Source: a virus
Direction: 5' to 3' (one strand)
Length of the DNA stretch: 64,000 nt
IMG/VR virus record: IMGVR_UViG_3300005805_000045
Span: 99,886-163,885 of that record
Shown: piece after piece, positions 32,636 through 58,012 of the stretch
Position numbering within the stretch: the first letter of the stretch is position 1
How the letters are laid out: each line of letters begins with the position of its first letter
The notes under the pieces: generated by a model
What the model saw: the letters and a program-made list of their open reading frames with translations, nothing else
What the model was told of the DNA's origin: nothing
Databases searched by the model: none
Translations under genes and position numbers: made by a program

Positions 32636-32710
32636 TGGCGCTTCCTACGGGAGTCGAACCCGTCTCTCCAGAGTGAAAGTCTAGTGTCCTAACCGATAGA
32701 CGAAAGAAGC
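32636..32710 (-). tRNA. tRNA-Glu(UUC)
   Basis: cloverleaf, anticodon loop CTTTCAC, GTTCGA T-loop, encoded CCA. Confidence 0.95.
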
Positions 32711-47596: not shown

Positions 47597-47673
47597 TGGC
47601 GATCACGGCAGGACTCGAACCTGCGACATACGGATTAGAAATCCGTTGTTCTATCCAACTGAACTACGTGACC
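47597..47673 (-). tRNA. tRNA-Arg(UCU)
   Basis: cloverleaf, loop TTTCTAA, encoded CCA. Confidence 0.95.
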
Positions 47674-48524: not shown

Positions 48525-48599
48525 TGGCTCCAGCGATAGGATTCGAACCTATAACCAATCGGTTAACAGCCGATTGCTCTACCGTTGAGCTACGCTGGA
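48525..48599 (-). tRNA. tRNA-Asn(GUU)
   Basis: cloverleaf, loop CTGTTAA, encoded CCA. Confidence 0.95.
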
Positions 48600-48616: not shown

Positions 48617-48690
48617 TGGCGCACTATGAGGGTTTCGATCCCTCTACTTCGGTTCGACAGACCGATATGATCCCAGTTCACCAATAGTGC
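48617..48690 (-). tRNA. tRNA-Asp(GUC), atypical loops
   Basis: all four stems pair; loop CTGTCGA; T-loop ATCGAAA; G73; CCA. Confidence 0.85.
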
Positions 48691-48790: not shown

Positions 48791-48866
48791 TGGTAGACCT
48801 GGAGGGACTCGAACCCCCAACCAAACCGTTATGAGCGATCGGCTCTAACCATTGAGCTACAGGTCT
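48791..48866 (-). tRNA. tRNA-Ile2(CAU) (lysidine type; Met not excluded)
   Basis: loop CTCATAA; C4:G69 and C5:G68; resembles alphaproteobacterial Ile2. Confidence 0.88.
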
Positions 48867-53774: not shown

Positions 53775-54620
53775 TTAGAAATCATCGCCCGCTTTGACGA
53801 CTTGTTTAGTAACTTTTTTCTTCTTGGGTTCACGGAAAGACTTTGGTATTTCCAAATACTCCATGTTCCCTTCTTCTTTACGCTTCATCGAAATGTTAAA
53901 TGCTATCAGTAGAAAGATAGCAAGAGGATCAAATACGATGATGAGAATGATTATAACACCTCTGACTGCTTTGTCAAGCAGTTTTGTGTCAGATGTATCA
54001 TAAAACAACTCAGCAATATATTTGATTGGTCCTACTTCTGCTTCAATCTTTTTGACTTCAGATTCAAGTTCAATCTTCTTGGACTTGATAGCAACGAGAT
54101 CAGCAGTTTCTTTCTCTTTTCTCTTTACTAACTCGTCACGCTTACTTGTTTGCTTCTCATTATTCTTGAGTGCGTTTTCAGATTTGCCTGTATCGATTAG
54201 TTTCTTGATAGCATCATCAATAACAGCAATCTGCTTATCGAGGTCTCGAATAGTTAGTTCTTTAGAGTTGATCTGTGTTTCAATAACAGGAATCTGTGTT
54301 GCGATACCACTGTTCATCTTGATCTGCTGGTCGATATGTGCTTTAGACAAAAAGCCATAGATTCCCATGCTTGTGATAAGCATAAGAATACCGATAGCAG
54401 ATGACAGATAGAACTTTACGATCTTAGGTGTATGTGACCAGTTATGATAAAGCCAAGACACGGCCACAAGTTTGGCTATCTCTAATGTCGAACCCATGAT
54501 GACGATTGGCCAGTATACACCAGCAAACAGTGTCGTCAGCCCTACTATAGAGTAGAAAGCTGCGACTGCTGACAAAGCAATCCCTGTGAGGAATGCCGCA
54601 GCAGGAAGTAGCTTGTTCAT
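53775..54620 (-). CDS. membrane protein with coiled coil
   Basis: N-terminal TM segments, GFLSKAH, EVGPIKYIAE, VFDPLA. Confidence 0.85.
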   Translation of the reverse strand: MNKLLPAAAFLTGIALSAVAAFYSIVGLTTLFAGVYWPIVIMGSTLEIAKLVAVSWLYHNWSHTPKIVKFYLSSAIGILMLITSMGIYGFLSKAHIDQQIKMNSGIATQIPVIETQINSKELTIRDLDKQIAVIDDAIKKLIDTGKSENALKNNEKQTSKRDELVKRKEKETADLVAIKSKKIELESEVKKIEAEVGPIKYIAELFYDTSDTKLLDKAVRGVIIILIIVFDPLAIFLLIAFNISMKRKEEGNMEYLEIPKSFREPKKKKVTKQVVKAGDDF

Positions 54621-54631
54621 TTTTTCCCTTG

Positions 54632-55724
54632 CTAGAATAAAGTTGCTGTGACTTCAGTTTTCCAATCAATACAATCGAGAATGATCTTGAGTGGTTCTAG
54701 AAAGCTCTTCTCGAATTGTGTATTATAGTCGATATACTTCTCTAAGTCAAGTTCTTTAGGAAGTACTTGTGGAAATGATATGACATGACTTTGGATTGTG
54801 TTAGGTTCTTTTAGATAGATGAACTTGATCTTCTCTCCTTCTTTGATAAGTGGATACTTCTTGTCCAACTTATACTTACTGATCAGGTTGTTATACAGAA
54901 TTGAACCACGAACATGGATTGGTGCACCCTTGAGGATCTCTTTTGTTCTGCTATCTTGCTTTTTATTGATACCATTTACACCTCGAGGGAAAGCAATATC
55001 AGCAGCAGGTAGTGTCTTGAACTCTTGACGGAATGCTTCGATGAACTCGATCATCGCATTCTCATCTTTGTTGATGACAATATCAATTGACTCCCACAAC
55101 TTTTCACGACAGGCTGCTGGTGTGGAACTCTTGATCATCTCAAGACCCATCACCTTTACTTTTGGCTTGGCATACTCAACACCTTCGTTATTATAAACGT
55201 TGAGAATATACCGCTTCTTTGCAGTCCAAATACCTCGATCGGCCAGAGCTTCACGTTTCATTTGCATCTTTTGATCGTATGCATTCACATACGTAGCAAG
55301 GTCTCGATAGCTCTTGTCAATAAACGGTTGAATTTTACTCTCACAAACTTTATCCATAAACTTGATGACCCTTTTACTATCAGTAGTCTCTTTTCCAAGA
55401 GCCTGAAGTACCAACTCATCAAGAGAGAGGTAAATCGAGTCTGTATCCGACGCAATGACGTAATCCTTTTCGGTCTTGAGCAGTTTATTTAGATATTCAT
55501 TCAACTTCTTCTCAATCCAACGAATGGCTAGCTGACCAGACGTTGTGATTGCTGTGGCTTGACGCACATCAAAGAAGCGGAAGTATTCGTTGCCCAATGC
55601 ACCGTATGCAGAGTTAAAGACTCACCTTTTTAGCCAGTTGCAGGTTGTTATACCGTGCAATCTTCCTTTCGAGGCTTTGCTTGAGTTCTTCTAATTCACT
55701 GTCGGATAAATTTTCTAACTGCAT
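54632..55724 (-). CDS. gp43: DNA polymerase C-terminal subunit gp43B (about 363 aa; needs a +1 frameshift at 55619-55613)
   Basis: ATG 55724 gives ...ARYNNLQLAKKVSL then TAA; the +1 frame continues NSAYGALGNEYFRF, SDTDS, AKKRY. Confidence 0.88.
55613..55628 (-). promoter_or_regulatory. prfB-like +1 frameshift cassette
   Basis: AAGGTG-AGT-CTT-TAA-C compared with prfB AGGGGG-TAT-CTT-TGA-C. Confidence 0.65.
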
Positions 55725-56466
55725 CAAAACATCGCCCCTTTGTTTTTTTGATTTCCCTATCGGAAAATCTAATTATATCATATCCTTGCTGAATAGCAAG
55801 TCTATCGTATTCTTCATCCAGTTTTCTTTGTTTATCTGTATTGTGCCAAAATAATCCATCAAGTTCTATCAAGAGTTTATCTCGTAACAGAAAATCATAT
55901 CTATGACCTTTACCATCGATCTGATACTGTTTAGTATATACTATATTATTTTGAACACAAAATTCCTCAAAAGCCAACTCAATCCATGTGTCTCTTCTAT
56001 TGAAATTTTTGTTATGTATACCAGTAATACCATCGAAAGCCAATTGTCGAAGTTTGTCTTTGATCTCAGGTTTATGAGCATACATGAGAAGAGATGCTTC
56101 GGATTTATCTCTTGTTTCAATACCAAATTTTCTCAAGTTATAAAGAATGCCAGAAGGACTCATATCGTACTTTTCAGCGATCTCGTAGAGATTCATTTTT
56201 TTCTCATGATATTCTGATCTAAGGATTTCACAGTCAAATCTTTGTATATCAATATAATGTTTTCTTGAAGTTCTAGACTTACCGTTTTGTTTCACGCTTA
56301 TCAGATCAGCTAAGCCGTTTCTTCTAATGCCATTATATACAGCAGCATAAGGTAGAGACAGAGACTTTGCTATCTCACTCACACTGTATCCTTCATTCAA
56401 AAAGTTTTTGATCTGATCTATGTGTAAATTTACACTCTTTGTGATATGACTATTTTGATTTGGCAT
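55696..56466 (-). mobile_element. free-standing homing-endonuclease-like gene (2 HTH plus Vsr/DUF559 EDxHD nuclease) splitting gene 43
   Basis: T.IE, YDF, IELDGLFWH, D..A...GY.IIRF; AT-rich; start 56466 after GAGGGAG. Confidence 0.85.
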
Positions 56467-56509: not shown

Positions 56510-58012
56510 CTACAGTTTCTTACGACGTTCAATCTCTGCAATAACCTGTTCCAGTTCCTTTTTCGCTTCGATAGATTTCTTCTTATACACAGTCCGATCG
56601 TTATACATTTCTTCCATGATCTCAGCAAGAAAGCCTTGCTTGTTGATACGGAAGAACTGTCCATTTGGTGTTAGTGTAACCTTCTCACACTTCAACGCAG
56701 ATGTGTCACACTTACCTTCAAGCAGGCGATCAATGTCAACACCCGACGAGAAGATAGCACGCATGGCAGGTGTATAGTCTTTATGTTCAACAAGCATCTC
56801 AGGTGAGATGTTGAACTGCATGATCAAGTGAGGGTAAAGAGAATTGAGATCCAGACTTGCAACCCACTTGTGCAGACCAACTTGTGGATCTTTGACATAA
56901 GCACCGATATACGCAGCATCTTTTTTATGCTTCGAAATTGGTGGTACAACGATATTCTTTTTCTTGAGCTTGTTATAGATGATAGAGTCCCACATGCGTG
57001 TCTGTTGAAACACGTCATCATAATTGCTCTTAGAGTCATAGGCTAGAGTCAAAGCCAACTCGATCAGCTTTAGCTTATCGTCTAGCTTATCGACCAGTTC
57101 TACGTCTCGGATGTTATACTCGATGAATAGTTGATAGTTGTCTTTATACAATGTGTGAAGGCTACCATATTCTTCGTATGATAGCTTGCGTTCGTTTAGT
57201 TCGACATTACAAATGGCATCAAGTTTATATGAGTCCTGTGACATGCCACCAGGAGCAAACTTCTTGTATAACTCGATGTAATCAAGAACAGAGATACCGA
57301 GAGGCAAGAAGGTCTTTTGATCACGACCCATGATCACAACGATTCGTTCACTCAATCTATTCCATGGCGATAACCGACGAACGAACTCTTCGCCCATCAG
57401 CTTTGTGATCCGATTGACCAGATATGGAATATCGAAGAACTTAACATTCCAGCCTGTGATGATGTCGGGATAATCACCTGTCCATTCATCTATAAACCTC
57501 TTGATAAGATCAATCTCATCAGAGCACCGGACATAACGAACATCATCACGACTGTTGTTGAAAGTACCGCAACCAAGAACAACAAACTTCTTTGCCGTCT
57601 TGAATGTGATCGCAGTAATAGGTTCACTCGCTGTTGCAGGATCAGGAAAACCATTCTCTGATCCTACCTCGATGTCGATGTTACAGACAGTGATAAGATT
57701 TACATCCCAATCAATATCATCTGGAAAGTTGTCGGAGATATATGTGTATTCATACTTTTGATTGCCATATATCTTGAAGTTCTCTACGCTATCATACTTG
57801 CCAACGAACTCACGACAATCACGAATATCACCTGGCTTTGCTTCGGCCACGTATTCTCCGTGAATTGTCGTAAACTCTGTTGGCTGTGATGAGGGAACGT
57901 ATAGTGTGGGAAAATATTCGATTGGTCTTCTTACTCGTCTTCCATTTTCGACACCTCTGTACAAAATCTTTGAACCATAGACATGTACAGAGGTGTAGAA
58001 TGAATGTGACAT
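56510..58012 (-). CDS. gp43: DNA polymerase N-terminal subunit gp43A (exonuclease, motif A, first fingers helix)
   Basis: DIEV, GWN..FFDIPY, YNI.D, GAYVK, DLNSLYP; ends ...KKELEQVIAEIERRKKL. Confidence 0.95.
   Translation of the reverse strand: MSHSFYTSVHVYGSKILYRGVENGRRVRRPIEYFPTLYVPSSQPTEFTTIHGEYVAEAKPGDIRDCREFVGKYDSVENFKIYGNQKYEYTYISDNFPDDIDWDVNLITVCNIDIEVGSENGFPDPATASEPITAITFKTAKKFVVLGCGTFNNSRDDVRYVRCSDEIDLIKRFIDEWTGDYPDIITGWNVKFFDIPYLVNRITKLMGEEFVRRLSPWNRLSERIVVIMGRDQKTFLPLGISVLDYIELYKKFAPGGMSQDSYKLDAICNVELNERKLSYEEYGSLHTLYKDNYQLFIEYNIRDVELVDKLDDKLKLIELALTLAYDSKSNYDDVFQQTRMWDSIIYNKLKKKNIVVPPISKHKKDAAYIGAYVKDPQVGLHKWVASLDLNSLYPHLIMQFNISPEMLVEHKDYTPAMRAIFSSGVDIDRLLEGKCDTSALKCEKVTLTPNGQFFRINKQGFLAEIMEEMYNDRTVYKKKSIEAKKELEQVIAEIERRKKL

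Follow-up and report, generated by a model that had tools for sequence, protein, structure and literature searches.

To our knowledge, programmed +1 frameshifting is rare in bacteria and phages outside insertion sequences and the prfB gene. The prfB site is defined by the sequence CUU_U, a C after the stop codon and a 5′ Shine-Dalgarno (SD) sequence (PMC5009743). A recoding element of another kind closes the T4 MobA element, in which the tail of ORF1 is followed by an endonuclease gene overlapping ORF2 by 8–32 nt, a unique N-terminal extension, a replaced stretch, and finally the recoding cassette (bioRxiv 10.1101/2022.08.31.505936). For the 50-nt hop of T4 gene 60, a role has been proposed in guarding against the nuclease by which its homing endonuclease gene (HEG) is spread (Bonocora et al. 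2011, as cited in PMC5009743). The DNA polymerase gp43 in turn is described as split into 43A and 43B in the Aeromonas phages 44RR2.8t, 31 and 25 (Petrov et al. 2010, via PMC2988022 and PMC2993671). The split halves co-purify and are polymerase-active (PMC2988022), and mobility of the motif-B intron of phage 25 by means of a free-standing endonuclease has been predicted (PMC2993671).

The window, i.e. the whole stretch of DNA analysed here, corresponds to the final 64 kb of an IMG/VR record of 163,885 bp with direct terminal repeats and a completeness rating of 100%. The virus is an uncultured T4-like myovirus, and its closest cultured relatives are T4-like cyanophages, the polymerases of which are about 60% identical to its own at the amino-acid level. 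On the minus strand, gene 43 is divided into three parts, i.e. 43A (58012-56510), an ORF of 256 aa (56466-55696), and 43B, which starts from ATG 55724. Taken as a whole, the locus is most likely to be explained by a real extra T in 43B that is skipped by a prfB-type programmed +1 frameshift, at a site that ends a mobile cassette, as judged from comparison of sequences. The parts of the gene are as follows.

56510..58012, minus strand: gene 43A, N-terminal 500 aa of a family B DNA polymerase (PF03104, PF00136)
55696..56466, minus strand: free-standing homing endonuclease gene, 256 aa (MPNQNSH...), from Pfam, gene call and homologues
55614..55724, minus strand: 43B zero-frame ORF, 36 codons plus TAA, from ATG 55724 (TTG 55727)
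54632..55615, minus strand: 43B +1-frame ORF, 327 aa plus stop (54634-54632), from NSAYG... to the C-terminus

The 43A part contains the exonuclease, the start of the palm and the first fingers helix, and has the cassette-type end ...ELEQVIAEIERRKKL. The zero frame of 43B is composed of a cassette-specific N-terminal extension (MQLENLSDSELEELKQSLE) and a replaced copy of polymerase sequence (RKIARYNNLQLAKKVSL), and ends ...IARYNNLQLAKKVSL before the TAA at 55616-55614. The +1 frame begins NSAYGALGNEYF... and covers the rest of motif B, the palm and the thumb; it restores the motif and adds 327 further residues homologous to gp43. When CTTT is decoded as a single Leu, a gp43B of 363 aa with a perfect KKVSLNSAYG (K-x3-NSxYG) results, and the junction peptide expected from the shift is ...KVSL-NSAYGALGNEYFR. 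KKVSLNSAYG was encoded in one frame in all of the 80 nearest IMG/VR relatives. No second polymerase gene was found in the complete genome, which has a single family B polymerase locus.

The original prediction described a gp43B of 36 codons ending in AAA AAG GTG AGT CTT TAA C, and these letters match exactly at 55631-55613. It also held that motif B continues only in the +1 frame, and the reading of CTTT as one Leu, which restores KKVSLNSAYG, bears this out. The elements of the site are listed below.

55631-55613, minus strand: the whole site AAAAAGGTGAGTCTTTAAC, i.e. AAA AAG GTG AGT CTT TAA C
55623..55631, minus strand: AAA AAG GTG, internal SD-like element, invariant (AAGGTG at 55628-55623)
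55620..55622, minus strand: spacer codon of 3 nt, AGT in the window, variable among sequences
55613..55619, minus strand: shift site CTT T AA C (CTT 55619-55617, extra T 55616, AAC 55615-55613)

The extra T at 55616 creates the zero-frame TAA, the base after this stop is C, and AAC is both the Asn codon of motif B and the first codon in the +1 frame. Past the site, motif B (K-x3-NSxYG) is readable only in this frame. In the window, a TGA located two codons before the shift point closes the +1 frame, which confines the frame change to about 10 nt. The identity of the stop is imposed by the downstream Asn codon AAY, before which only an inserted T makes a stop.

One surplus T in a short run of T is a typical sequencing error, the record is a metagenome assembly, and the original prediction itself had cautioned that a sequencing error would look the same. 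Two other assemblies, ENA ERZ27287905 and Logan SRR2962458, were 100% identical to the window over 5,067 and 3,038 nt, respectively, CTTTAAC included, and the same 43B protein was called on four other contigs, two of which were compared at DNA level. Three pattern scans looked for one additional base between the codons for Leu and Asn in motif B, with upstream codons not constrained in all of them, and 16 distinct frameshifted sequences were obtained including that of the window, the 15 others being from IMG/VR and metagenome contigs. The recurrence of the same insertion in an invariant context in these diverged sequences excludes sequencing error, and the caveat falls with it. In-frame relatives with CTT AAC assemble normally, and against a dead gene in a defective genome stands the complete genome with no second polymerase, so that the probability left for artefact or dead gene is close to nil.

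The pattern AAAAAGGTG-NNN-CTT-T-AAC was common to 16/16 frameshifted sequences, which aligned without gaps around the site, and the inserted base was T in every one. This agrees with the original prediction of a prfB geometry, i.e. an SD-like AAGGTG, a 3-nt spacer, CTT and stop-C; the alignment of relatives it had proposed gave AAGGTG-NNN-CTT-T-AAC in all 16 distinct sequences, with a TAA stop throughout. Third-position entropy in the 16 sequences was exactly 0 only at the codons AAA, AAG, GTG, CTT and AAC, and ranged from 0.5 to 1.9 bits at the flanking third positions, including those of invariant Ser (TCN), Ala (GCN), Gly (GGN) and Arg. The spacer codon was AGT, TCA, TCT, TGT, CAA or GGT, and its amino acid accordingly S, C, Q or G. 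Whole cassettes were 57–87% identical, and the downstream polymerase sequences fell on deeply separated branches. Among in-frame KKVxLN relatives (n = 82), the same codons were found at 49% (AAA), 29% (AAG), 6% (GTG), 24% (CTT) and 54% (AAC), and the full set of five in none of the 82 (joint expectation 0.11%). No match to the signal set without the extra T, i.e. no in-frame revertant, was found in 2.9 million IMG/VR contigs, and no frameshifted gene without the SD-like element was found in the scan that did not require it. The combination of an SD-like element, 3-nt spacing, a CUU-U slip site and a post-stop C is, at the level of sequence, the pattern expected under selection.

A loose pattern scan of metagenomes returned at least 120 matches, and among those listed most were in-frame genes matched out of register and four were true sites. 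The site was found in no cultured phage by megablast, by blastn with site probes of 60–71 nt, or by tblastn with the 37-aa peptide. An ungapped alignment of cyanophage Syn1 to the site was rejected, the Syn1 gene being normal and in frame. Five public gene calls (P0005, P0043, P0048, P0073 and P0077) place the start of 43B in the +1 frame and read ...KRCVFNSAYG, i.e. AAAAAGGTGTGTCTTT translated out of frame; from these calls it follows that further frameshifted loci exist and are mis-annotated in protein databases.

The AGGUG core pairs with CACCU of the 16S rRNA 3′ end. The predicted anti-SD duplex at the site was −6.3 to −9.1 kcal/mol versus −0.4 to −1.6 in in-frame relatives, and the 16S 3′ end of the actual host may differ. 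The genes of the phage are SD-led, with 4-mers complementary to the 16S 3′ end enriched 4–6x at positions −15 to −10. No conserved downstream stimulatory RNA structure was detected (Alifold energy about 0, z-scores centred on 0), no quadruplet-reading or unusual tRNA-Leu was present among the five ordinary tRNAs of the phage genome, and no start codon in the +1 frame was conserved among the frameshifted sequences, in which the seventh +1 codon was TTG, CTT, ATG, ACC or CTC. With no alternative start, odd tRNA-Leu, conserved downstream structure or second family B polymerase to account for the gene, a prfB-style, SD-stimulated +1 ribosomal frameshift is the best reading of these sequences, and a strongly supported one.

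According to this mechanism, peptidyl-tRNA-Leu would be held on CUU in the P site with a poorly terminating UAA-C in the A site, and AGGUG, 3 nt upstream of CUU, would pair with the 3′ end of 16S rRNA. The tRNA-Leu would then re-pair with UUU in place of CUU, and AAC would be the next codon decoded. The product would be the full-length gp43B of 363 aa with K-x3-NSxYG intact, which would assemble with gp43A into the only DNA polymerase of the phage, and shifting at this site is presumably efficient. Some features count against this explanation. UAA is a stop recognised by both release factors, and termination there should rival the shift more strongly than at the UGA of prfB. AGGUG uses another part of the anti-SD than the AGGGGG of prfB, so that equal spacing on the mRNA need not mean equal geometry, and no reason is apparent why the first codon, AAA, never varies.

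The run of three T at the site and the run of five A just upstream could suggest that slippage of RNA polymerase, or editing of the RNA, restores the frame before the transcript is translated. Known slippage tracts are far longer than these runs, and an A lost from the A run leads into a TGA both in the window and in one further sequence (L088). Slippage or editing also leaves the invariant AGGTG, the fixed 3-nt spacing and the C after the stop unaccounted for, and is accordingly regarded as very improbable. An equally small probability is given to a polymerase made in three pieces without recoding, i.e. 43A, a peptide of 31–38 aa and an internally started C-terminal protein, with the SD-like element as a ribosome-binding site for re-initiation. 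AGGTG would be a reasonable SD for this purpose, and gene callers begin the downstream ORF at assorted internal codons. The lack of a conserved +1 start codon argues against re-initiation, as does the upstream +1 frame, which is closed in the window and in two further sequences (L088 and L089). Moreover, a later start deletes NSxYG and leaves the essential Lys on a separate small peptide, and the SD lies just 3 nt from CTT.

Five tRNA genes were identified on the minus strand of the window (32636-32710, 47597-47673, 48525-48599, 48617-48690 and 48791-48866), with the specificities Glu(TTC), Arg(TCT), Asn(GTT), Asp(GTC) and Met(CAT). The phage tRNA-Asn decodes AAC, the first codon past the shift, and an abundant A-site tRNA for the +1 frame may favour shifting; tRNA-Asn is found in many T4-like phages, and its presence here may be meaningless. 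A putative permuted tmRNA-like gene with the tag ANDNAPFEMALAA, possibly a false positive of ARAGORN, was called outside the window, some 700 nt before its first position (genome C1:98757-99169).

Every frameshifted gene 43 is also split about 31–38 codons upstream of the site, at the fingers tip. The cassette is composed, in order, of the 43A tail, an optional HEG, the N-terminal extension of 43B, the replaced homologous stretch and the frameshift site. The 43A tail is conserved as ..E.V..E.E(K/R)RG. and the start of 43B as (M/L)SD.EL...K, after which the polymerase sequence resumes. The endonuclease of the window was recognised by Pfam as N-terminal HTH domains joined to a C-terminal DUF559/Vsr-like nuclease domain, and the last 29 nt of its gene overlap the start of 43B out of frame. 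An intact endonuclease gene of 254–279 aa was present at eight distinct loci (window, L086, L088, L090, L091, L175, L181 and L216). Homologues of the window's endonuclease, intact and 254–262 aa long, were detected in six other cassettes. Five lineages have the split and the site with no HEG and 60–100 nt between the halves, and two further contigs end too early. The polymerase of L091 is in three pieces, as an HNH gene (188 aa) splits 43A again upstream of the DUF559 cassette (oriented 173-2698).

The right edge of the cassette was mapped in one pair only, i.e. the window and L222 (protein P0002), the other nearest in-frame relatives being at most 80% identical. L222 has no split at this place and no extra T, and its DNA identity to the window is 95.8% over 1.56 kb of 43B. 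The differences between the two cluster as follows.

55600..55665, minus strand: 3′ end of the cassette, about 60 nt of clustered differences against L222 (window–L222 alignment)

In the approximately 60 nt before the site, all differences were synonymous except the inserted T, and identity rises to 96–97% directly after TAC GGT. As the cluster of differences ends at the site and high identity resumes there, the frameshift site is the last element of the inserted DNA. Identity to L222 was 95.8% downstream of the cassette (54098-55661) versus 81–85% upstream (56545-57412), and this drop on the 43A side indicates that the cassette marks a recombination boundary. The polymerase of L222 (L222:1-1548; JGI 3300032288, Ga0335290_1472200) is itself interrupted by a GIY-YIG (LEM-3-like) endonuclease gene some 90 codons farther upstream, an insertion that may contribute to the upstream drop. 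Gene 43 has thus been invaded at different places by different nucleases in the window and in L222.

In a tree of the C-terminal part of the polymerase, the frameshifted rows were scattered among unsplit in-frame relatives, which gave 11 changes, at least four of them forced by well-supported branches, and their clustering was no greater than with shuffled labels. Two loci, L181 and L175, carry cassettes that are 86.7% identical on 43B backbones that are 70.7% identical, and this contrast is, on the sequence comparison, direct evidence of exchange. The cassette is thus mobile and patchy among T4-like phages, as far as comparison of its sequences can tell.

The split as such does not bring the shift with it. 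A further contig (L223:2786-6113, Logan SRR24319155) has the same fingers-tip split, an unrelated HNH gene of 221 aa and an in-frame motif B, AAA AAG GTC TGT CTT AAT, in which the signals are absent. The N-terminus of its 43B, LSKNEL, is like the LSDSEL of the window. Since L223 is split yet in frame, the frameshift is tied to one cassette type. This context was missing from the original prediction; the site is best explained by its position, which is always at the 3′ border of a mobile cassette that splits the gene and often includes a HEG.

A regulatory sensor had been put forward instead, in which the output of gp43B is tuned by release-factor availability or the state of the ribosome and the 36-aa product may act on gp43A. 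The geometry is indeed the same as that of the autoregulatory prfB site, the five endonuclease-free lineages keep the site, which may thus be of benefit by itself, and a one-base deletion would erase it, yet revertants number 0 in IMG/VR. The product, however, is a polymerase and no release factor, so that feedback logic is missing, and most T4-like relatives manage without the site. Gating by release factors found no support, as the UAA was forced by the Asn codon AAY after the extra base rather than chosen, nor did the proposed inhibition of gp43A by the 36-aa product, which is the polymerase's own fingers helix. Finally, the restriction of the site to one cassette type, at its edge, points to an origin by insertion, and regulation of this kind is considered unlikely.

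For the insertion itself, an origin in self-immunity may be considered. By analogy with the hop of T4 gene 60 and with the motif-B intron of Aeromonas phage 25, the motif-B DNA would be the target of the HTH+DUF559 endonuclease, and the extra T with its adjacent clustered silent changes would protect the carrier genome from the endonuclease of the cassette. We tentatively propose, with somewhat less than even confidence, that the locus represents a second, independent pairing of a HEG cassette with recoding, in which the one-base insertion in motif B is the self-immunity mark of the HTH+DUF559 endonuclease and is tolerated by way of its own high-efficiency prfB-like +1 signal on UAA. Against the immunity part stands the retention of the site in five distinct HEG-free lineages; its presence there fits protection against co-infecting carriers and equally fits a function of its own. 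If the proposal is true, programmed recoding in essential phage genes would repeatedly arise from selfish elements.

The original prediction knew of no description of such a site in a phage replicase, and none was found in the literature searched; the same search returned no earlier description of a prfB-like site in a catalytic motif of any essential viral replicase. If confirmed, the site would imply that the module of CUU, stop and SD works efficiently on UAA and in a non-autoregulatory setting, and it would provide a conceptual sibling for T4 gene 60 and connect the way recoding signals arise with homing endonucleases. In practical terms, gene callers annotate these polymerases as truncated or with a start in the wrong frame, and by means of the 19-nt signature such genes can be located and their annotation mended.

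Compared with prfB, the site is alike in its short zero-frame ORF (36 codons here, 25 in E. coli), in CUU followed by U, in the stop followed by C, in the SD-like stimulator 3 nt upstream, and in having no downstream RNA structure. It differs in its stop, which is UAA here and UGA in prfB, and in its SD-like core, which is AGGUG in another pairing register here and AGGGGG or AGGAGG in prfB. Unlike in prfB, the product is a viral DNA polymerase subunit outside the RF2 circuit, with no autoregulatory loop, and the site is part of both a catalytic motif and a mobile cassette.

The split polymerases of Aeromonas phages 44RR2.8t and 25 share with the window the separate cistrons and the position of the split, which precedes motif B and falls in the tip of the fingers. 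Their 43A ends ...RG(V/I)K.D, and their 43B begins with LS(T/N)DEL, compared with LSDSEL here. The 43A end and 43B start of 44RR2.8t (L230) have short motifs in common with window positions 56510-56555 and 55665-55724, respectively, i.e. ...SRG(V/I)K.D in the 43A tail and LS(T/N)DEL in 43B. In phage 25, 43A and 43B are separated by a free-standing GIY-YIG endonuclease gene, and motif B is interrupted by a group I intron right after NSLYGAL. Unlike in the window, 43B is in frame in both 44RR2.8t and 25, the insertion of phage 25 is spliced out of the RNA, and its GIY-YIG HEG has no detectable similarity to the endonuclease of the window. In view of the shared motifs, the fingers-tip splits of distant T4-like phages may descend from one element family.

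The closest counterpart in arrangement is T4 mobA with gene 39 and gene 60. In both systems a free-standing HEG splits an essential replication-related gene, with the parts laid out as in the MobA element. The endonuclease gene overlaps the second ORF out of frame (29 nt here), the recoding element lies 30–46 codons into ORF2, and the distribution among relatives is patchy. They are unlike in the recoding event, which is a one-base +1 shift here and a 50-nt hop in T4, in the gene, a polymerase here versus a topoisomerase, and in the nuclease, HTH+DUF559 here versus HNH. The cassette is thus an analogue of T4 mobA/gene 60 and not its homologue. Both prfB-type frameshifting and a HEG cassette carrying a recoding element are known parts, and what appears to be new is their combination at this locus.
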